Source: a virus
Lineage: Duplodnaviria > Heunggongvirae > Uroviricota > Caudoviricetes
IMG/VR virus record: IMGVR_UViG_3300020156_000001
Span: 234,321 to 298,320 of that record
Length of the DNA: 64,000 nt
Direction: 5' to 3' (one strand)
Below the pieces are notes generated by a model. That model was not told the origin of the DNA. It ran no database searches and saw only the letters and a program-made list of their open reading frames with translations. Position 1 is the stretch's first letter, and each line of letters opens with the position of its first letter. This document shows, in pieces, positions 33,449-42,215 of the stretch. The position numbers and the translations under genes were made by a program.

Positions 33449-34033
33449 TTAGACGCGTGTACCAGCGATTTGTTCTGGCAATGCTGTCATCAAGCCGTCT
33501 GCTAGTGTTGCGTTGTCATAACGAACGCTCATTGTGATTGTCTGGAAGGACGAATCATCATATGCGAGGTCAGAGAACTCAACGTTGTCTAGGAAGCAGC
33601 CTTCGAGTGTCCATGTGGAGATAACACCGTCGTTGCCACCGTCCATTGTTTCGATCAAAAGCACGAACTTGTAGTTGACACCGCTTGTGAAACCAGTCTG
33701 TTCGTAATGGTTCATCTGCTTCTGCATCTGGTGACCAACGAGACGTTCCGCCGAGTTAGTGATATCATCACGAATAACCAGCGAGATTGGTTCCCACTCA
33801 TGCTTGCCAGCATAGTATGCGGTGCTGTTGTAGGAGTGAACTGGAACTGGTTCATGGCTCATAGACGGCTGAGTCACGCTTACAACTTGTTGAGTAAGCT
33901 CGATACCACCGGCGATTGGACCAAAGTTTACCACGCGAACGCGGAAACGGTACTTGTACTTAGGCTGAAGGATACCGCCACGGCCACCACCACCGCCGAG
34001 CGGAACACCAAATTTAGAGAGGGTTTCTGCCAT
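33449..34033 (-). CDS. gp19: Tail tube protein (T4 gp19-like)
   Basis: KYRFRV, YAGKHEWEPISLVIRDD, WTLEGCF and ITMSVRYD. Confidence 0.85.
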   Translation of the reverse strand: MAETLSKFGVPLGGGGGRGGILQPKYKYRFRVRVVNFGPIAGGIELTQQVVSVTQPSMSHEPVPVHSYNSTAYYAGKHEWEPISLVIRDDITNSAERLVGHQMQKQMNHYEQTGFTSGVNYKFVLLIETMDGGNDGVISTWTLEGCFLDNVEFSDLAYDDSSFQTITMSVRYDNATLADGLMTALPEQIAGTRV

Positions 34034-34037
34034 GGAT

Positions 34038-34087
34038 AAATCTCCTGTTTAGCAAATATTTTAGATATTTACCAGAACAGGAGATTT
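34038..34087 (-). promoter_or_regulatory. Late promoter inside RBS-sequestering hairpin (tube gene)
   Basis: Perfect 12-bp aaatctcctgtt/aacaggagattt; minus-strand TAAATA at 34066-34071 between the arms. Confidence 0.7.
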
Positions 34088-34103
34088 TTATTAAATTAGT
34101 GGT

Positions 34104-34595
34104 TTATTCTACAGCGATTGTTGGTGTTGGATTGCCCATACGAAAAGCATCACGTGGAATACCATCGCAGGTTGGAAAAACTGCAAGCTGAACCTGATAC
34201 ACACCTTTTGGCAAATGATCTGGCAGCTGGAGAAGAACACGAGCAGTAACTCGACTAGATGTTCCACGCTGACCTAGGAACTGACTCTTACGTGTGGGGA
34301 ATTGATAATCCACAGGCCCCACAAGCACGTTTTGATAATCAGCGTGGCAGCCAACTTCCTTCTTGATCAAATTGTATTCAAGAACCATTGCATCGCCTGG
34401 AACAAAATTATGTGCAGGTTCAAGTGTGTCCGAGCTTAAAACTTTTGGTGCACTACTAAATGCGAGAAAGTCTCTGCGGTCACCATCATAGAAATAAGTG
34501 GTAGCTTGCGCTGCAATAGTAACAACTAGCGCAAACATTATAATGTTGCCAAGGTTTCGAACCATTGGGCTTGAATTCTTAAACAAATTAAACAT
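34104..34595 (-). CDS. Membrane-anchored protein with N-terminal TM (candidate lysis accessory)
   Basis: NIIMFALVVTIAAQA TM segment then a beta-rich domain with two Cys; late-gated RBS. Confidence 0.5.
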   Translation of the reverse strand: MFNLFKNSSPMVRNLGNIIMFALVVTIAAQATTYFYDGDRRDFLAFSSAPKVLSSDTLEPAHNFVPGDAMVLEYNLIKKEVGCHADYQNVLVGPVDYQFPTRKSQFLGQRGTSSRVTARVLLQLPDHLPKGVYQVQLAVFPTCDGIPRDAFRMGNPTPTIAVE

Positions 34596-34597
34596 GG

Positions 34598-34632
34598 GTC
34601 CTCCTTAGGGGCTAATTATTTAGCAGGAGGAC
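34598..34632 (-). promoter_or_regulatory. Late promoter inside RBS-sequestering hairpin
   Basis: Minus strand: gtcctcct-gctaa-ataa-ttagc-cccta-aggaggac-cc-ATG. Confidence 0.7.
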
Positions 34633-34642
34633 ACCACTCATG

Positions 34643-34670
34643 GAAATAGGCCGGTTTCCCGGCCTATCCC
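34643..34670 (-). terminator. Intrinsic terminator after Ro60 gene
   Basis: ataggccgg-GAAA-ccggcctat followed by ttcc (short U-tract). Confidence 0.65.
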
Positions 34671-36320
34671 TTACTTGCTGAAAAACTCGGATGCCAGCTG
34701 CGGTGCAGCGGAATCAAAGCCCGCAAAGTCCATCATACCAGCGTCGGACGGATCCGCGATGGAGAAGCTCGTTGCGGTCATACCAAACACTGCGAGCTTT
34801 GCAGGAACATTGTGGTTCTTACGGAAGTCCTTCAGTGCCTGATACGGATGAATCGAACCATAGTAAGTTTCATTGTCCGTGTAAACAGAGAAGTTCTCCG
34901 CTGCATAGCCCATGTTGTCGGCCCAAAGCATTGGCAAAGCGCAATCCGTGCCTGCAAACGGCATGTTAGCCGTGTCACGAAGCGCCTTAGTCAAGCCGCC
35001 CTTTGGATCGATTTCGATTTCCTTGACGCTCGAACGGGACCAAGTGTTACCGCGATCGTTGCTGAAACCACCTGGGGTGAATGCCAGCAAGCGATGGTTG
35101 GGCTCCACAGCCGCCGTGATCAATGCCATAGCCATCGAAGCTTCGCGCGCCGTTAGGGTTACAAAGCCAGAGATTGGCTGCGTCATCGAACCCGAAACGT
35201 CGATACCGAGAACAGTTGGCTTGTTCGTTGGCGTAACGTTGCCGAACGCCTTGTAAAATGCCTTGTCCAACGCCTGAGTAATGTCCCTGTTGGGAACCCA
35301 GATGTTGTTACCACGGACACCGCGGCCGGCTTCATACGTACGAAGCGCACTCAAAATGTTCATCGGGTGGATACGAGACTTGCGCAGGATCTCCTGATTG
35401 GTTACCTGTGCAATTACCTTATCCACATTCGCCTTGGTAGCGAATACGTCGTTTCGCGTCATCGTAGCAAGATTGCGGATCAACGCCGTCATTGGCATCT
35501 TTTCCAGCAATGCTTCCCACACAACCTTCGAGTTCAAGTGAGCCGTTGGTACGGCTTCACGCGGCAAGTTGTGGTCCAGGATAAGCTGAACGATACGGTT
35601 TTCACCCGCCGTCTTTGCTTCCTCAAACGCCTGGATGATTTCCGGGAGCTTGCCCGAGACATCCTTACGCTTGATGCTTACCTTGGAACCATCTGCCGCA
35701 GTACGCGAATAGGTGGAAGCCTTGGTTGCATCAATACCACCGGTAACCCAACGGAAAACGGCGTCGTACTGGGCGTTCTTTGCCTTTGGGTGAGACAGAC
35801 GCAATAGGTCGGAGTTTGCCCAACCATCACGGCTCTGATACTTTACCACCTGATAAGCAAGCTGGTCTGGCGCCTTGATGAGGTACCAGTTACGAACTGC
35901 CTTGGACAGCGTACGGCCCCAACCACGGAACTGCTTTACGTAGCCGACAAACGCAAACAGGTGCGTTGGTGTACGAGCTACCTCAGGGAGAGCCGCAAGG
36001 GCACGACGACGAGTTTCGACCTTGGAGTCAGCCGCTGCAAGAGCAAGCACGAACAGCGCGTATTCGTTCTTGGGCGCACGACCTTCCTTGCTTATCTCAA
36101 CTGTCCGCTTGATAACAGCTTCTGGTTGAGTGCGAAGCAACGCAATAACGTTTTTCGCATTATCCTTGGTCACATCGGCCGCGCCCTTATAAGCGTTGGC
36201 TTCCGATCCCAGGATAAGGAAACGGTCGAGCTGGTCCATTGGGCTTACCTTGAAGGTAAAACCACCAGCGTTGTTCATTACCATGTCTAGGCCTTCCACG
36301 GCCTTTGTCTGTCGAGTCAT
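34671..36320 (-). CDS. rsr: Ro60 / TROVE-domain RNA-binding protein with C-terminal vWA
   Basis: Start reassigned to MTRQTK (RBS gaaaggag; 549 aa); NNAGGFTF, LDRFLILGSE, GWGR, YQVVKYQSRDGW, MPMTALIRNLATM, vWA MIDAS GIDVSGSM, GTDCALPM, YTDNET and GFDSAAP. Confidence 0.93.
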   Translation of the reverse strand: MTRQTKAVEGLDMVMNNAGGFTFKVSPMDQLDRFLILGSEANAYKGAADVTKDNAKNVIALLRTQPEAVIKRTVEISKEGRAPKNEYALFVLALAAADSKVETRRRALAALPEVARTPTHLFAFVGYVKQFRGWGRTLSKAVRNWYLIKAPDQLAYQVVKYQSRDGWANSDLLRLSHPKAKNAQYDAVFRWVTGGIDATKASTYSRTAADGSKVSIKRKDVSGKLPEIIQAFEEAKTAGENRIVQLILDHNLPREAVPTAHLNSKVVWEALLEKMPMTALIRNLATMTRNDVFATKANVDKVIAQVTNQEILRKSRIHPMNILSALRTYEAGRGVRGNNIWVPNRDITQALDKAFYKAFGNVTPTNKPTVLGIDVSGSMTQPISGFVTLTAREASMAMALITAAVEPNHRLLAFTPGGFSNDRGNTWSRSSVKEIEIDPKGGLTKALRDTANMPFAGTDCALPMLWADNMGYAAENFSVYTDNETYYGSIHPYQALKDFRKNHNVPAKLAVFGMTATSFSIADPSDAGMMDFAGFDSAAPQLASEFFSK

Positions 36321-36377
36321 CGGACTCTCCTTTCGATTCGGCCCTACTCTGCTAGGGCAAACGCACGCATATACACT

Positions 36378-36412
36378 GGAAAAAGAAAGTTCAAGCCTAA
36401 ACTTGAACTTTC
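36378..36412 (-). terminator. Terminator-like hairpin ~60 nt upstream of Ro60 start
   Basis: gaaagttcaag/cttgaactttc perfect 11-bp stem followed by UUUUU on the minus strand. Confidence 0.65.
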
Positions 36413-36508
36413 CAAAAATATATTCAACAAAATGGGCAACAATGGAAATCCACTGCGGATAGAGGAACAGCCATGAGCAGCCCAAGCCCTACCCTAACGC
36501 CTTATTAT

Positions 36509-36823
36509 CTAATTTGTGCCGGCACTCATGATCTCTTTGAGAAAGGCAATCGCTTCATCAGTTGATCTGACTTGCTTGTTCACTTTCTGCGGGTGATGAA
36601 GCACAATGTGGATGCAGGATGGTCCATACATTTGCACAAGGCCTCTACCTTCAAACCGCCCGTTGCCAGGGGCTCGATTATTCCACCTATTTGGCCACTT
36701 ATAATCGTGATAAGGAGCTTTGTAAGCGGATTCTACACCGAGGACTTTCGCACATTCCTCGTAAAACGTCTCTTTTTCATTTGTCATCGGCCCCAGTATA
36801 GCTAGGGCCGACAACTTTGTCAA
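36509..36823 (-). CDS. Hypothetical protein
   Basis: 104 aa between the SIMPL-like gene and Ro60. Confidence 0.55.
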   Translation of the reverse strand: MTKLSALAILGPMTNEKETFYEECAKVLGVESAYKAPYHDYKWPNRWNNRAPGNGRFEGRGLVQMYGPSCIHIVLHHPQKVNKQVRSTDEAIAFLKEIMSAGTN

Positions 36824-36825
36824 TG

Positions 36826-37533
36826 TTAGAGTCGGCTGTAAATCTTGCGCGTAAACGTAACACGGGCAGTCAGCACAAGCTTCTGCGTTACGCCGCCAGC
36901 GTCTTCTTCATCACCGGCTGCTTCATTGTACATGGCAACGTTTGCCGTGCGGAGCATGTTGGACTTGGCGTATTGATTGTTACCGCTGTGAGTAACAAAG
37001 TCAATGGAGCCAACAATCCAGGCATCGTCGCCGTCCTTGACCACTTCGTTGAGAACTGTGAGTTCTTCGTTGGCCTTTTCGTAAACCTTGCGGCGGAGAG
37101 ATTTATTACCTTGGGCAATTTGATCGCGTGTTGGTGAATAGTCCGTGTTGAGCAGCGCGAACTTGAGACCTGGGCGATTGACTGCCTTGATCTTGCCCTT
37201 GATTGGACCAACACCACTGTCCTTGATCCGGACGTTCAGCGAATAAGAAACAGTTTCAATACCCGAACTGTCTTCGTTGCGGTTCAAACCAGTAATATAC
37301 CAGTCGCCGTCGGAGATTTGCTTTGCCGCTTCAAGCACTTCTGCCTTAGCGTCGAGCGTTGGATCGGTCATTGCAAATGTTGCGGAAAAACTAAGTTTTG
37401 CAGTTTCCGAAATGATGAACTCTTCAGCGGTAATGTCAACCGACACTTCGCTCATTGGAATATGAGTCACGCGAATCTCCTTGGGATTGATTACAGTTGC
37501 CGTTGTATTAGATAAAATCCTAGGAATCAACAA
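36826..37533 (-). CDS. SIMPL/DUF541-like protein lacking a signal peptide
   Basis: Alternating beta/alpha pattern; KVYEKANEELTVLNEVV...WIVGSID...QKLVLTARVTF C-terminus. True start probably GTG/ATG ~20-26 codons in (RBS aaggag). Confidence 0.45.
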   Translation of the reverse strand: MLIPRILSNTTATVINPKEIRVTHIPMSEVSVDITAEEFIISETAKLSFSATFAMTDPTLDAKAEVLEAAKQISDGDWYITGLNRNEDSSGIETVSYSLNVRIKDSGVGPIKGKIKAVNRPGLKFALLNTDYSPTRDQIAQGNKSLRRKVYEKANEELTVLNEVVKDGDDAWIVGSIDFVTHSGNNQYAKSNMLRTANVAMYNEAAGDEEDAGGVTQKLVLTARVTFTRKIYSRL

Positions 37534-37575
37534 AAGAAAAACCTAACTCCGAATCGACTTCAGGAGTTAGGTTTT
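37532..37575 (-). terminator. Intrinsic terminator of ncRNA
   Basis: aaaacctaactcc/ggagttaggtttt 13-bp stem followed by UCUUUU. Confidence 0.8.
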
Positions 37576-38293
37576 GTTCCAAAGCACCCGTAGGTCTTTG
37601 ACCGGTTATGTGCGTTTCGTAATCGTGGTCCGCATCTTAAGCACCGGAGTGCCACTAGCTGGGGCTAGATTCATACAATCGCTTGTATGTTTACAGAGCA
37701 AAAGGTTAACAGGTTACGGCCGTCGAAATCATTTTGCTTCAACACCCGAAGGCTCCACAAAGGTTGACCCGATAAAATGCCTAGGCATTACATCCTTTCG
37801 GACGACTTGGACCACAATAGGAAGTTCCGCACTTGCCTATTTTTGCTTGATAAGATAACCCTATTAAAGCGGCTCTGTTAGTTTATTTAACAGGAATCCG
37901 AAGATTCCTGCTAAAATTGCGTTATTTCGATCAAGAGAAGAAGGTGGGTTTCTCTGTCCTATCCCACTATATCACTATAGCAGAATTCCCCATTCATTTC
38001 GGTACCAATCTGAGAAGAAAACAGTACCTACTTAACACCTGCGCTACTAGTTACCAGGCTGTCGACGAGTTTCCTTGTCGAACTTCTTTCTCTATCTGAA
38101 AAGCCGAAGCTTTTCTGAAACTCGCCCATCCGTCTCACGGGACGAGCCATTCGCTGTTATCGGTTAATTCCGACATATCCCACGCACCCAGGATTTCTAG
38201 TCCTGGAGTACCCTTACGCTTTAGAATTAGCAGCCTAGTCGCCAAGCGTGAGATTTTATAGGTTCAGGAGAAAAACTCCTTCGCGAACGTTAT
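37532..38293 (-). ncRNA. Large (~760 nt) highly structured non-coding RNA candidate
   Basis: Own promoter and terminator; no minus-strand ORF >=60 aa; three C(UUCG)G, one c(UACG)g and two GAAA tetraloops on the minus strand; long-range helices. Confidence 0.75.
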
Positions 38294-38299
38294 ATCAGC

Positions 38300-38328
38300 A
38301 ATATAGAGCAGATTTAGGGCAAAGTCAA
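38300..38328 (-). promoter_or_regulatory. Sigma70-like promoter of ncRNA
   Basis: TTGACT (38323-38328)-17 nt-TATATT (38300-38305). Confidence 0.7.
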
Positions 38329-38783
38329 TAATATCCCGCAGCTTTATATAAAATTCTATCCATTGCACTCATGCACTCATCATAGCCAATGGGATCATCG
38401 TTGCGGAACTCTTCAGCAGTTTTGTATTTGGGCAGACTGGTTGAGAAGAACTCGTTGTTGAGCTGAAGATACGCTTCCCAAACTTGTTCCTCAGTAAAGC
38501 TGATGGGACCGGACTTACGTAGGATCCACCAGTAGTTGACGTTTGGATCTTCATCGAGTTCTTCAAAAAACACCGCAGCAAGTTCTGCGTTGATAACTTG
38601 TGGTTCAGCCGTTGCAGTCAAATGATTGGAAAGATCTATAAGCTTGTTTTTGTTGATCACACTGGGTAAAACTTTTCGGTCAAATAGCATGGCGCCGATT
38701 ATAAACGTATCCAACCCCACGGTGCCCGGATACCAACGAGAGGCCACATAAAGCTTTTTGTAATTGGCTCGTTCGTAAATCAT
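38325..38783 (-). CDS. Hypothetical protein
   Basis: 152 aa; RBS aaggaga; own early promoter. Confidence 0.6.
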   Translation of the reverse strand: MIYERANYKKLYVASRWYPGTVGLDTFIIGAMLFDRKVLPSVINKNKLIDLSNHLTATAEPQVINAELAAVFFEELDEDPNVNYWWILRKSGPISFTEEQVWEAYLQLNNEFFSTSLPKYKTAEEFRNDDPIGYDECMSAMDRILYKAAGYY

Positions 38784-38801
38784 ACGGATCTCCTTTGTAC
38801 C

Positions 38802-38829
38802 AGCTTAGCAGGTCTTGGAGATCAGTCAA
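38802..38829 (-). promoter_or_regulatory. Early sigma70-like promoter
   Basis: TTGACT-gatctccaagacctgc (16 nt)-TAAGCT. Confidence 0.6.
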
Positions 38830-38831
38830 GG

Positions 38832-38854
38832 AAAAGCCCGGACTAAGCCGGGCT
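38832..38854 (-). terminator. Intrinsic terminator after sheath gene
   Basis: agcccgg/ccgggct stem plus UUUU. Confidence 0.7.
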
Positions 38855-38859
38855 CCTCA

Positions 38860-41800
38860 TTATAGTGTTGTCGAAACCGAGTAAAGCTCGGAGAGATCAT
38901 CACCCGTATTAACGATACGGATTGGAATGTAGATGAACTCGATTGCCTTTACCGGCTGGATAGCAACGTCAACCCACAACTCGTTACGATCAATACGATC
39001 TGGTGTGTTGTTGGTTTCATCGCAAACTACGATAAAGTCGTACATTGCATCCAAGTTAACAAGCGAAGCCAAGTAACGCTCGAAAGCAATACGGATGGAG
39101 TCGCGTGTGTGGAATGTGTGTGGCTGGAACAAGAACGGACGGCTCAAGTTGTCCAGGTTGTAACGCATGTGGTTGATCAAACGTGCTACGTTGATACGAT
39201 CCATTGCGCTTGCTGTGGAGCTACGTGTCTTCTGACCGTAAATCATCAATCCGCGATTTGGAATAAACGCAATTGGGTTGATGTTGTTGGAGTAAAGAAC
39301 ATCGCGCTGACCTTCGTTGAGAAGCAAGCTACGGAACTCTTCTTCCGGTGTTAGGTAACCAACATTCGAAGCGTTAGTGATAAGACCACGAACTGTACCA
39401 GCTGGAGCGTACCATGGGTAGCTTACCGAGTCGCTATATGCGATGCTGCGCATTGCCATAGCCGATGGAGGAACCATGATCTCAAAGCCATCAACGTTGG
39501 AACCCAAGCCCCAAGGATAGTAAACACCAACGTATGGGTTGAATGTTGTGATGCCCTGTTCGCCATTGCTGATCGCGCCGGAGAGTTCTGCCTTTGCCCA
39601 CTTCTGGATTTCTGTAGCCGAACCGTTCAAGCGGATTGGAGTATCACCAACGATAAACGCAACTTCCTTCTTGTCCGTGTTGAGTGTTACCATCTCATCG
39701 ATCAGCTCAGGATAACCTGGAGCAGCGATCAAGTTGAAGTAGATGGACTCTGCACGGATGTCTTGGTTGCTGTTGATTGTGTTGGTAAGCGAACGAACAA
39801 TAACCGCACGCTGAGCCTTGCGACCCATCATTGGAGCGCCATCAGCATTGTTGCCGCTGATTGTTACCCAACGACCTGCATCAGCAACTGGATCAAATGT
39901 AGAGAAGCCAACTTCGTAATCGTTGATTGTGAAGTCAGTGGACTCGTATTCACCAGCAAAGTAATTTGGACGCCACTGCTTTACGTTCATTGTCGAGAAG
40001 CGAGTGTTGAACAGAAGTGTACCTTCTGGGTAAACACGTGGATCTGGAGCATCCGGATCAACATAGTTGCTGCGCAATAGGCTAGACGCATCTGTTGCAC
40101 CCTTACGGGAGCTTGTAGCGGTTTCGCGTGCATCAGCAAACACAATACCAAATGGTGTTGTGGAGTCTGTGTTGTCTACTAGGAACCAGTTACGGGAAGC
40201 TGCCTGGTAACGATATAGCTTTGGATAGTTTTCCAAATCACCTGTGTTGATCCACAAGTCGTTCTGTGCAAGTGGCTGACCATTCTGCTGGTACATTGGA
40301 GGTGTAGCCTGCAGGATAACGCCGCTTTCGCTTGTAGCGGAATTGCCCATGTAGTTCTTGTAACCAACCCACTGGTCGCCATCATTGATCATGATGTCAA
40401 CTTGGAAGTCGTCGTTGAACCAGAGGTAACCCTCTTCAGCGTCTGTTACTGGGGCAGTTGGACCAAAGTTGTAAACTAGTGGTTCCCAAGCCAAACCATT
40501 CCAACGACGCAGCTCATGTGTGCCCATTGGAAGTTCGATAGAACCAGTTACGTTGAACTGAACGTAGAGAACACCAATGCTCTTATTTGCGCCAAACAAA
40601 GCATTTGCAGCGGCATCGTTAGCAAGCAATGGAGCTACGATTGTGTCCCAAAGACCTGTGTTACCGTTGAAATACTTAACAGACCAGTTAGCACCGTTGT
40701 TGTACTGAGTTGTGTTAACCCAAACATCACCAGCAACAACATTCTTACGACCTAGGTCGTCGATGCGCGATGGAATTGTGTAGTGTGGGCTGAAACGCAA
40801 AGCTACGCCAAACTTGGTTACTAGACCAAGAACAGTTGCAGCATTGCCGTTGCTGTTGACGATGATATCGCCACCAAGCTTGTTAACCAATACAAGTGAA
40901 CCACTCTGTTCGTAAGCTACGATCTGGTTTGCAGTTGGACCCTTTGCAGCGTCGGCAACTAGGCCAGCCAAAACAGTGTTGATTTCCGTAGCAATATCGG
41001 CAACAGTTAGAGTTGCACCAGTAAATGTAACGTCTACCGCGCTTAGCGTGTCGTTGCTTACGTTGATGCGAAGTGTTGTGTTAGCGATTGCTGGGATAGC
41101 AGCGGAACCCAAGTTGTTACCTGCGGTACGTGTTGGGGATGCAGCCTTCCAAAGAGCCGAACCAACCTTGAACCAGAAGCTCGAAGCAAGTGGATCGTTG
41201 GACGATGTGATACCTGCTGGGCGAACCTTCTGGAAGATTTCGTTGTCATTGTTTTCTGCAACAACAACAGCAAAAGAACCATCAAGACCGATACCAGCGC
41301 GTGGGCCAAAGCTGCCATCAAACTCACCAGCCTGTAGACCCAATGCAACAGCAACAGCCGACGATGTACCGCCGAGTGTGATTGCAGTGTTGCTTACCGT
41401 GCAACGGATAAGTAGGCTTGCCTTTTCAGCAAGTTGGAATACGCTTGCTGTAACGCCAGCGATCGAAGCCGCGTTGATCTTTGTTACGATTGCCTGAAGT
41501 GTATCACCACCAGCCAAAGCAACAGCCTGGCCGTTGATGCTGATGTTACCAGCAGTTGCAAGAACCTGATCACCTGCGGAATCAAACTCAACACCGCCGA
41601 TAAGACGATATTCAACTTCAGTTGCTTCGTCAAGTACGACTGGAGTCTGTGGAACCCAAGCAGAACCTGGGAATGTGGAATCAACACCCTCGTGAATACC
41701 CCATACTGTGGACTTTGTGTCAAGCCAGTATGTGCCAGCGAATGGTTCGCCAACTGGTTCTTCCGAACGTGGGAAAAGCTGAGAATAGTCAACAGAACCA

Positions 41801-42141
41801 CGAATAACGTATGCCTTGTTTGCCATACCCAAGTAGGAATATGCAGCCCACAAGCCGTATTCGTTTAGTTCAAAACCATGACGGCTTGTACCATTCTTCT
41901 GATAGAAGATTGGGTTGCCGAAGGTTTGGACAAGTTCACGCTGGCTTGTTACCAGGTAAAGCTGATTTGCTTTTTCAGGCAGTGTACCAACGGAAATGTC
42001 TGTGCCATTAGGATGAGTCTTGTACTCATGCGTACCAATGATAAACAGAGGCACCGTGCCTTCGCCAGATGTTGCGTAAAACGACTCGTCGGTTACGGTA
42101 ACATCTACGCCTGGAGAAGTTAGTGGATAGGCCATATTCAT
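38860..42141 (-). CDS. gp18: Contractile tail sheath protein (gp18-like) with large insertions
   Basis: SPGVDVTVTDES N-terminus; FNLIAAPGYPEL, VYYPWG, PWYAPAGTVRG, INPI, RINVARL and IQPVKAIEFIYIP. Confidence 0.92.
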   Translation of the reverse strand: MNMAYPLTSPGVDVTVTDESFYATSGEGTVPLFIIGTHEYKTHPNGTDISVGTLPEKANQLYLVTSQRELVQTFGNPIFYQKNGTSRHGFELNEYGLWAAYSYLGMANKAYVIRGSVDYSQLFPRSEEPVGEPFAGTYWLDTKSTVWGIHEGVDSTFPGSAWVPQTPVVLDEATEVEYRLIGGVEFDSAGDQVLATAGNISINGQAVALAGGDTLQAIVTKINAASIAGVTASVFQLAEKASLLIRCTVSNTAITLGGTSSAVAVALGLQAGEFDGSFGPRAGIGLDGSFAVVVAENNDNEIFQKVRPAGITSSNDPLASSFWFKVGSALWKAASPTRTAGNNLGSAAIPAIANTTLRINVSNDTLSAVDVTFTGATLTVADIATEINTVLAGLVADAAKGPTANQIVAYEQSGSLVLVNKLGGDIIVNSNGNAATVLGLVTKFGVALRFSPHYTIPSRIDDLGRKNVVAGDVWVNTTQYNNGANWSVKYFNGNTGLWDTIVAPLLANDAAANALFGANKSIGVLYVQFNVTGSIELPMGTHELRRWNGLAWEPLVYNFGPTAPVTDAEEGYLWFNDDFQVDIMINDGDQWVGYKNYMGNSATSESGVILQATPPMYQQNGQPLAQNDLWINTGDLENYPKLYRYQAASRNWFLVDNTDSTTPFGIVFADARETATSSRKGATDASSLLRSNYVDPDAPDPRVYPEGTLLFNTRFSTMNVKQWRPNYFAGEYESTDFTINDYEVGFSTFDPVADAGRWVTISGNNADGAPMMGRKAQRAVIVRSLTNTINSNQDIRAESIYFNLIAAPGYPELIDEMVTLNTDKKEVAFIVGDTPIRLNGSATEIQKWAKAELSGAISNGEQGITTFNPYVGVYYPWGLGSNVDGFEIMVPPSAMAMRSIAYSDSVSYPWYAPAGTVRGLITNASNVGYLTPEEEFRSLLLNEGQRDVLYSNNINPIAFIPNRGLMIYGQKTRSSTASAMDRINVARLINHMRYNLDNLSRPFLFQPHTFHTRDSIRIAFERYLASLVNLDAMYDFIVVCDETNNTPDRIDRNELWVDVAIQPVKAIEFIYIPIRIVNTGDDLSELYSVSTTL

Positions 42142-42147
42142 ACCCCT

Positions 42148-42215
42148 TATAAGAACGAACGGTTTTAGGACTATGGTTGTCCTAAGTCCTCTTATTTATC
42201 CGTAGCGTTCTTATA
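42148..42215 (-). promoter_or_regulatory. Late promoter in structured leader of sheath gene
   Basis: tataagaacg/cgttcttata 10-bp outer stem abutting the RBS, inner ttaggac/gtcctaa, TAAATA at 42193-42198. Confidence 0.5.

Follow-up and report, generated by a model that had tools for sequence, protein, structure and literature searches.

Y RNAs lie at most 4 kb from the Ro60 gene, on the same strand, and carry the Ro60-contact motif GNCGAAN0-1G or GGUCCGA (PMC4201824). The loop of the Y RNA tethers PNPase in Deinococcus and in the Thermus phage phiLo. A phage Ro60 was reported to bind upstream Y-like RNAs and host PNPase (PMC12135203). The DNA considered here, a window of 64,000 nucleotides (nt; positions 234,321 to 298,320 of the IMG/VR record IMGVR_UViG_3300020156_000001), is part of a virus record of 480,347 bp that has direct repeats at its ends and belongs to a soil phage. 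Between its tail sheath and tail tube genes there is an island in which a gene of full-length Ro60 is found downstream of a structured RNA of about 755 nt. The original prediction made for this island regarded the pairing of a Ro60 with such an RNA as undescribed; phage Ro60 with Y-like RNAs is, however, already known (PMC4201824, PMC12135203).

Phosso, a Sinorhizobium phage of 469 kb, and Atu_ph07, an Agrobacterium phage of 490 kb, are the cultured phages closest to the window phage, and the jumbo myoviruses Rak2, PA5oct and GAP32 are its remoter kin. The whole island is carried by the minus strand, on which all window features given below are located, and consists of the sheath gene, a 152-amino-acid (aa) open reading frame (ORF), the RNA, a gene of SIMPL fold, a 92-aa gene, a leader, Ro60, a 163-aa ORF and the tube gene. 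Every part previously listed for a co-oriented block between the sheath (38860) and the tube (34033) was found there. Loci of other phages are designated by L numbers.

The RNA is a composite of a 5' part of about 370 nt and a 3' part of about 350 nt. The core of the 5' part represents a new, widespread phage RNA family without Rfam match, described by the covariance model R1, and the idea of a single "giant" RNA dedicated to Ro60 had to be given up, because the 5' 370 nt belong to this family, mostly found without Ro60. The 3' part contains a Y-RNA-like module, which probably binds the Ro60 encoded downstream. In our opinion, the chances are about even that the island is a junction hot-spot with an R1 RNA plus added cassettes, in which Ro60 works through the fused Y-like 3' module and a mimic of it in its own leader.

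The RNA gene and the R1 family

The RNA is bracketed by a sigma-70-type promoter, TTGACT-17-TATATT (38300-38328), and a 13-bp terminator (37531-37573), and lies in a stretch of about 790 nt that is free of listed ORFs (37534-38324). The fold z-score of the stretch is -5.2, and the same -35/17/-10 layout and distance to the core were found in Phosso, L040, L045, L046 and L026. Promoter, terminator, fold z-score and covariation all bear out the structured RNA of about 760 nt that had been proposed. A coding function of the stretch was rejected, as there is no minus-strand ORF of at least 50 aa, the helices covary and the 81-aa gp395 of Phosso is not conserved in the window. This gp395 (L001 8494-8739), annotated as a hypothetical protein, is situated wholly in the RNA's 3' domain; the window offers no corresponding ORF, and gp395 is probably a spurious gene call.

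A homologous collinear RNA is present in Phosso, and further members were obtained by metagenome and IMG/VR searches (L002, L004, L026, L029, L032-L034, L040, L045 and L046). Common to all members is a core of 133-142 nt, located in the window at 38148-38289 (model R1, 129 bits, E 6e-33) and composed of a closing stem P0, hairpin P1, the invariant UGAACCUAUAA, stem P2, the invariant GACUAGG, hairpin P3, GUAAGGGUA and hairpins P4 and P5. Over the family, this order reads P0, P1, UGAACCYAUAA, P2, GACURGG, P3, GUAA.G.UA, P4 and P5. The features that define membership, namely CUGAACCYAUAA, GACURGG and GUAA.G.UA in order, helices P2-P5 and a Y:R pseudoknot pair, are all found in the window, where GACUAGG forms a pseudoknot with CCUA.

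The structure of the core is supported by covariation. In eight aligned sequences, 93% of the cells pair, compared with 32-44% in slid controls, and both sides change in 14 of the 17 pairs. A looser pattern scan of IMG/VR yielded 86 stretches and 78 new loci, with 73 (59 distinct sequences) passing model R1; in the alignment of these 59 sequences, which was fitted to the model and thus favours the structure by construction, 93.4% of the cells pair (33-45% in slid controls) and compensatory change is seen in all 17 pairs. The Y/R pair of the pseudoknot is U-A in 50, C-G in 29, U-G in two and C-A in none of 81 distinct copies, the search pattern having admitted all four combinations. Next to the core there are peripheral helices (37926-38147; alignment A7 and RNAalifold), closing with GAUCGAA, which are common to the "short forms" of about 400 nt; RNAalifold predicted 79 pairs over about 370 nt of eight sequences, 58 of them with compensatory change. 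The heptamer GAUCGAA itself (37926-37932) directly follows a long hairpin; most members have it where their 5' RNA ends, and it is also present in the Ro60 leaders of Phosso, L002, L004, L042 and L044; CGAA, contained in it, was emphasised for phage Y-like RNAs (PMC12135203).

Comparison with Rfam 15 gave no match at the gathering score in the window, and none on 34000-39000 or 37500-38340 when E values up to 10 were allowed, save chance terminator matches, which were discarded (a RybB-like one on the sheath terminator and mir-1258 on the RNA terminator). In size, phage origin and the many tetraloop-capped helices, the RNA is like GOLLD and ROOL (bioRxiv 10.1101/2024.12.08.627333), and it might be an ornate RNA of this type, forming RNA-only multimers and unrelated to Ro60. 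We consider this very improbable, as the 841-nt stretch has no Rfam match even at E up to 10, neither tRNA nor tmRNA genes were found in the window by ARAGORN, and the lengths of the members extend from about 250 to 780 nt, of which only 140 nt are shared, which speaks against a single large architecture of fixed form.

Another explanation is suggested by the position of the RNA, which starts a few bases past its promoter, always ends with a strong terminator and has a same-strand gene within 60-80 nt, and by its invariant junction bases and pseudoknot, resembling a ligand- or polymerase-binding core. It could be a long cis-acting leader that decides whether transcription passes its own terminator and goes on into the SIMPL-fold gene, the 92-aa gene and those beyond, in the manner of a riboswitch-like attenuator or a put-like processive antiterminator. 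Against this stand the convergent gene after the RNA in L034, a TAAATA between the terminator and the tube gene in L029, a distance (about 100 to 600 nt) and a sequence between core and terminator that both vary, without any alternative pairing being conserved, and downstream genes that differ widely over the family, so that such a role seems improbable to us.

About 20 distinct R1 matches sit in loci with a sheath and/or tube homologue, most of them without Ro60, 92-aa and SIMPL-fold genes, and all matches of at least 57 bits belong to this group; in L029 and many IMG/VR loci, the RNA stands directly before the tube gene. Weaker members occur in other contexts, for example, with DNA polymerase or HNH endonuclease genes. 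Model R1 has no match genome-wide in cultured PA5oct, GAP32 and XbC2. The sheath-tube junction of PA5oct holds a Hef-like homing endonuclease (L134 2290-3906), and that of GAP32 and XbC2 is a gap of 107 nt only. With the R1 RNA in some phages and the endonuclease or the short gap in others, the junction is therefore an insertion hot-spot, which, in this part of the clade, the R1 RNA has occupied longest and most often.

The Y-RNA-like 3' domain, Ro60 and its leader

The 3' domain of about 350 nt was found only in three related Ro60-bearing phages, namely, the window phage, Phosso and L040. In these long forms, the RNA runs on at the point where the short forms (L002, L004, L026, L045 and L046) have a terminator just past GAUCGAA. 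A linker hairpin with a UUCG loop is followed by TAAATA (37884-37912), 4 nt before the Y-like stem and kept in Phosso and L040, and then by the Y-RNA-like module of 188 nt (37692-37879). In stem 1 of this module, AACAGAGC[C]G pairs with UUUUGCUCUGU, which leaves one C bulged and forms a G.U pair; UUAAUAGG / CCUGUUAA make up stem 2, and UUAUC then opens an insert of about 140 nt. Both stems keep pairing by compensatory change in Phosso (stem 1 GAAGC/GCUUC) and L040. According to the alignments of the long forms, the insert contains a 23-nt block, GGUCCAAGUCGUCCGAAAGGAUG (37791-37813), which includes GUCCGA and has its last 22 nt invariant, the first base being variable (U in L040); the exact block GGTCCAAGTCGTCCGAAAGGATG had no match in IMG/VR. 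The 3' tail (37531-37691) consists of hairpins and the intrinsic terminator, with a possible long-range pairing of GUGGUCC with GGACCAC (37625-37633) that is compensatory in L040 (GUGUCC/GGACAC).

The signature of the module, GCCG-N5-10-GGGTTAYC (37854-37873; GGGUUAYC in the RNA), is expected by chance 0.06 times per window. Among 136 fetched loci, it was found in Ro60-bearing ones only, always on the Ro60 strand, without any match in Ro60-less loci that have an R1 RNA. A second exact match is present at 35742-35762 on the coding strand of Ro60, within the coding sequence; the complementary 3' strand was not found there, and this match is probably due to chance.

Y-like RNAs of 62-160 nt at ten other phage Ro60 loci follow one plan, in which a terminal stem with a bulged C and a G.U pair precedes a second stem, closing on GGG/CCC, and a loop opening with UUAYC. 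The layout of the window module (stems, bulged C, G.U and UUAUC) is the same, its bulged stem GC[C]G/UUGC also being that of Y-like RNAs beside other phage Ro60 genes. Tandem arrays of such RNAs were observed directly upstream of phage Ro60, with eight copies in L008 (4340-5840) and four in L100 (7559-8244). The layout of the phage RNAs parallels that of the vertebrate Ro60 site GGUC[C]GA/UUGACC and of the bacterial motif GNCGAAN0-1G (PMC4201824). In the window, the module lies on the same strand as Ro60 and within 4 kb of it, 1.4 kb upstream, and the RNA does carry a bulged stem of Y-RNA type.

Ro60 itself (34671-36320, 549 aa) consists of a TROVE ring and a vWA domain with MIDAS, the adhesion site dependent on metal ions, as established by Pfam and PDB alignments. 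Its start is the ATG at 36320, preceded by an AAGGAG ribosome-binding site; the TTG start at 36485 listed for the gene is over-extended and was rejected. The HEAT-repeat ring (PF05731, E 2e-49, residues 70-380 of the long ORF) and the C-terminal vWA_Ro60 domain (PF25045, E 7e-50) are both present; in an alignment with human Ro60 (PDB 9nen), DVSGSM, GTDC and TDNET fall on identical residues, which means that MIDAS (DxSxS, T, D) is intact. From one end to the other (query residues 13-546), the protein can be aligned with Ro60 of human and Xenopus (PDB 9nen and 1yvp, E 1e-106) and also with Deinococcus Rsr (2nvo, E 1e-89). Its identity to the Phosso Ro-like protein is 66% over the tblastn match and 68% for the full protein (BLASTP). 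Domains and structural alignments agree, and the identification of a full-length Ro60 with an intact MIDAS stands.

The leader of Ro60 (36321-36508, 188 nt) separates it from the 92-aa gene and includes a terminator-like hairpin with a U run (36385-36412) that parts the two genes. Immediately 5' of the ribosome-binding site, there is the hairpin UUGCCCUA-GCAGAG-UAGGGC[C]GAA (36337-36360), a circularly permuted copy of the bulged helix, closed by a loop on what in Y RNAs is the side towards the termini. This hairpin occupies the same place in seven Ro60-bearing phages (the window phage, Phosso, L002, L004, L040, L042 and L044), and its stems differ yet stay complementary in relatives (GCCC, GCUCGUG, GCUCUAC, GCCUC); it is absent from Ro60-less loci and from Atu_ph07. 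This hairpin is likely the site of a Ro60 feedback.

Judging from the sequence, the following scheme may be proposed. The sheath-tube junction of the jumbo myovirus clade would be a hot-spot whose oldest tenant is an independently transcribed R1 RNA gene, and one sub-clade would have gained downstream cassettes for the SIMPL-fold and 92-aa proteins and, in some members, the Ro60 cassette. In the window phage, Phosso and L040, the transcript would read on, without a terminator, into the Y-like 3' domain of about 350 nt with its loop insert of about 140 nt. Ro60 would bind the bulged stem of the module to form a ribonucleoprotein, in which the conserved insert, together with the whole 5' RNA in the read-through transcript, might serve as a tether or effector part. 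By binding the permuted helix beside its own ribosome-binding site, Ro60 would also limit its own translation. Protection of RNA from anti-phage RNases or redirection of PNPase, proposed earlier as the purpose of the Ro60-RNA system, may be conceivable consequences. The notion of such a system is retained as far as a plausible pairing through the Y-like 3' module is concerned and is modified in that this module is fused to an RNA of a separate, widespread family.

Several observations weigh against this scheme. The covariance model R2, constructed from seven short phage Y-like RNAs, gave no match in the window even with filters off, nor in any locus of the jumbo clade, and it did find tandem copies beside Ro60 in L008, L100, L015, L019, L009 and L064; this miss may be due to the hairpin loop's insert of 140 nt. 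The motif GNCGAAN0-1G is absent from the window module, which has GCCGCUU, with GNCG kept and AA missing, a variant that is also found in L017 and L019 beside other phage Ro60 genes. No tRNA-like T/D arms were detected in the module (ARAGORN on the window; no T-loop motif was seen), which makes it at best YrlB-like. For these three reasons, it is called Y-RNA-like and not a proven Y RNA. Its 188 nt within a transcript of about 350 or 755 nt also exceed the 80-130 nt of known Y RNAs. Leader-type hairpins, when loosely defined, are not rare (11 in the window versus 6 in shuffled sequences), that of the Ro60 leader having the longest stem in the window. Atu_ph07 has Ro60 without R1 RNA or the leader hairpin: the 650-nt gap after its Ro60 is AT-rich, with a fold z-score of -3.8 and no R1 or R2 match, and the stretch between its sheath and gp129, considered as a possible RNA, was rejected in favour of plausible small genes. 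L002 and L004 have Ro60 with a short RNA only. Moreover, the three long forms are close relatives, and their strict co-occurrence with Ro60 amounts to about one observation.

The combinations in which the cassettes occur are diverse. RNA, SIMPL-fold gene, small protein and Ro60 are found together in the window, Phosso, L040/L041 and L002, and the same set without the SIMPL-fold gene in L004 and its relatives. L026 and L046 have RNA, SIMPL-fold gene and small protein without Ro60, as does L049, where the position of the RNA is off the contig; Atu_ph07 has Ro60 and the small protein without RNA. Ro60 is encoded in four of the approximately 20 sheath/tube R1 loci, all of them close relatives of the L004 phage. 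The expected co-occurrence of RNA and Ro60 in relatives was, consequently, confirmed for the 3' part of about 350 nt, found strictly with Ro60 in three related phages, and not for the 5' RNA, which is separable from it. Since the 5' RNA, SIMPL-fold gene and small protein exist without Ro60, and Ro60 of Atu_ph07 without the RNA, Ro60 is regarded as an insert that is optional and has a probable tie to the 3' module.

This pattern may also mean that the RNA and Ro60 are mere neighbours in the hot-spot, working independently, and that the Y-like features of the 3' part are convergent or a decayed remnant. Such an explanation agrees with the prevalence of sheath-tube R1 RNAs without Ro60, with the absence of Ro60 alone from the set in L026 and L046 (in L049, the two genes are kept), with the RNA-less Ro60 of Atu_ph07, with the endonuclease in PA5oct and the bare junctions of GAP32 and XbC2, and with the failure of model R2 in the window. 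It does not agree with the restriction of the Y signature to Ro60 loci and of the 3' domain to phages with Ro60, with the leader hairpin that copies the same helix, or with R1 RNAs that again adjoin Ro60 or Y RNAs in the unrelated L100, L081, L064 and L063. Taken together, we find it rather unlikely.

In L100 and L081, the R1 RNA lies 10 nt after the Ro60 stop, L100 having also four Y-like RNAs upstream; in L064, it lies 3.4 kb upstream of Ro60 and in L063, 60 nt after a Y-like RNA. As Ro60 is encoded in only 358 of 50,697 GenBank phage records (about 0.7%), this looks like enrichment, with the lineages concerned being few and partly related. The R1 core might be a new class of functional RNA, binding a ligand or protein or acting as a ribozyme, which has its conserved place at the sheath-tube junction of many large myoviruses and has been joined repeatedly by Ro60/Y cassettes because Ro60 acts on or with it; the window would then show the extreme case, in which one transcript fuses this RNA to an expanded Y RNA, and the first Ro60 gene under a mimic of its own target. 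This idea is still somewhat doubtful.

Accompanying genes and promoters

The gene of the SIMPL/BP26-fold protein (36826-37455) probably starts with the ATG at 37455, giving 209 aa, and not at the listed ORF end, 37533. In the AlphaFold2 model, with a mean predicted local distance difference test (pLDDT) score of 78, the top two Foldseek matches are the Campylobacter SIMPL-like protein 7c50 (E 3e-6) and BP26 (4hvz, E 4e-5, template modelling (TM) score 0.58). The probability was 1.00 and TM was 0.5-0.6 to SIMPL structures, the next matches having E above 4e-3. No Pfam family, including PF04402, was matched at E up to 0.01. As far as the fold is concerned, these two matches justify the label "SIMPL-like", which finds no counterpart among Pfam profiles. 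Compared with Brucella BP26/Omp28 and the Campylobacter protein, with which it has the predicted fold in common, the phage protein shows only 10-17% identity and no obvious signal peptide, is phage-encoded and adjoins an RNA gene.

The next gene had been given as an ORF of 104 aa (36509-36823); it is real, but its start was over-extended, and the ATG at 36787 gives 92 aa (36509-36787; matches protein P0002). The product belongs to a small family with nine database matches and the invariant motif RWNNR..GNGR (RWNNRAPGNGRFEG in most members). Its model has an alpha-beta3-alpha fold (AlphaFold2 mean pLDDT 80), for which Foldseek found no match below E 1 in PDB. VIA-align gave Z 5-7 to HPF/RaiA and to HisRS anticodon-binding domains and about Z 4 to a double-stranded RNA-binding domain, weak values in the range of common arrangements; the fold points weakly to RNA-binding alpha/beta domains, at the level of such an arrangement only. 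An assignment to glycoside hydrolase family 19 was rejected, as the ESM Atlas leads were below 0.9 and concerned fragments of this family only.

Contigs identical to the 92-aa gene were found in two soil metatranscriptome runs from different studies. They cover 36479-36673 and 36706-36857 of the window, and each run has one contig with ends at 36479/36481 and 36673, which could reflect a stable fragment or an assembly effect. Neither run contained contigs on the RNA, and their contig depth of 2-4 is uninformative on its expression.

On the 3' side of the 92-aa gene, alignment of relatives showed a conserved element (36436-36500) comprising GCGUUAGG, a variable stem and a GCAGUG-loop-CACUGUUGC hairpin. 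It is kept in relatives with and without Ro60 and is, therefore, not specific to Ro60 and goes with the 92-aa gene. SIMPL-fold gene homologues, too, were found in Ro60-less loci. Judged by co-occurrence, the two genes cannot be upheld as partners of Ro60, since they accompany the 5' RNA in the Ro60-less L026, L046 and L049 as well.

The strongest promoter of the region, a sigma-70-type TTGACA-17-TATACT (36795-36823, 11 of 12 matches), has the same layout in L002 and L004; its end lies 7 nt upstream of the ATG (36785-36787) with which the 92-aa gene starts, which suggests an mRNA of leaderless type. Across the region, 11 sigma-70-like sites were found, with 10.7 expected from shuffles; the "early-type promoters" of the original prediction are, thus, reduced to the two sites before the RNA and before the 92-aa gene, both conserved in relatives, since sites of this kind are, over the whole region, no commoner than in shuffled sequences.

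At about 19 of 23 minus-strand sites, TAAATA precedes the start codon by 20-55 nt, among them those of the sheath, tube and 163-aa genes (for example, 34066-34071, 34617-34622 and 42193-42198). It is akin to the T4 late-promoter box TATAAATA and is probably the late-promoter box of the window phage. The copy before the Y-like stem, kept in all three long forms, suggests that the 3' domain is also made alone late in infection. The host polymerase would make the 755-nt read-through RNA and the late promoter the 3' domain alone.

On its upstream side, the island is bordered by the tail sheath gene (38860-42141, 1093 aa; PHROG 10581, E 8e-292; Pfam Phage_sheath_1C). The 152-aa ORF that follows (38325-38783) has no Pfam or PHROG match. 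It is homologous to a 149-aa protein of L026 (32% identity, E 2e-19) and, in Phosso, to gp394 in the C-terminal part of the latter. Between Ro60 and the tube there is the 163-aa ORF (34104-34595), preceded by the TAAATA at 34617-34622, with a homologue in L026 (39% identity, E 6e-44). The tail tube gene (33449-34033, 194 aa; PHROG 4542, E 9e-62), 84% identical to the tube protein of Phosso, is the downstream border.

Comparison with known systems

Similarly to GOLLD, ROOL, OLE and raiA, the window RNA is large, phage-encoded and presumably independently transcribed, with many conserved helices and invariant junction bases. Unlike them, it has no Rfam 15 match, is not located beside tRNA genes, combines about 140 conserved nt with variable expansions and prefers the sheath-tube junction. 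At least 59 distinct phage contigs carry an RNA of the R1 family, which, with its invariant junction bases, its proven pseudoknot pair and its variable expansions, and with no Rfam match, is a ready target for studies of structure and function.

The Ro60-Y RNA systems of bacteria and phages, such as Rsr with Yrn1 and YrlA/YrlB, RYPER with PNPase, and Ro60 of the Thermus phage phiLo with Yrl1/Yrl2, have in common with the window a full-length Ro60 with TROVE and vWA/MIDAS, an RNA encoded at most 4 kb away on the Ro60 strand and a terminal stem with a bulged C followed by G.U. The window differs from them in a module of 188 nt with a 140-nt insert, fused behind an unrelated structured RNA of 370 nt, in having neither tRNA-like arms, exact GNCGAA, an R2 score nor a nearby RtcB, and in the permuted helix of the Ro60 leader. 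For the role of the Y RNA as a tether, this would be a natural test, in which the usual small effector loop has given way to conserved sequence of hundreds of nucleotides, and it bears on the role of Ro60 in phage infection. Since cultured Phosso carries the same arrangement, the system is testable in a laboratory host.

Autoregulation by mRNA mimicry is known for the ribosomal proteins L1, S8 and L20 and for the operator of threonyl-tRNA synthetase; to our knowledge, it is not known for Ro60. The hairpin in the Ro60 leader suggests a simple feedback loop of this protein that has not been described before. As in those cases, a copy of the protein's presumed target is located beside its own ribosome-binding site.

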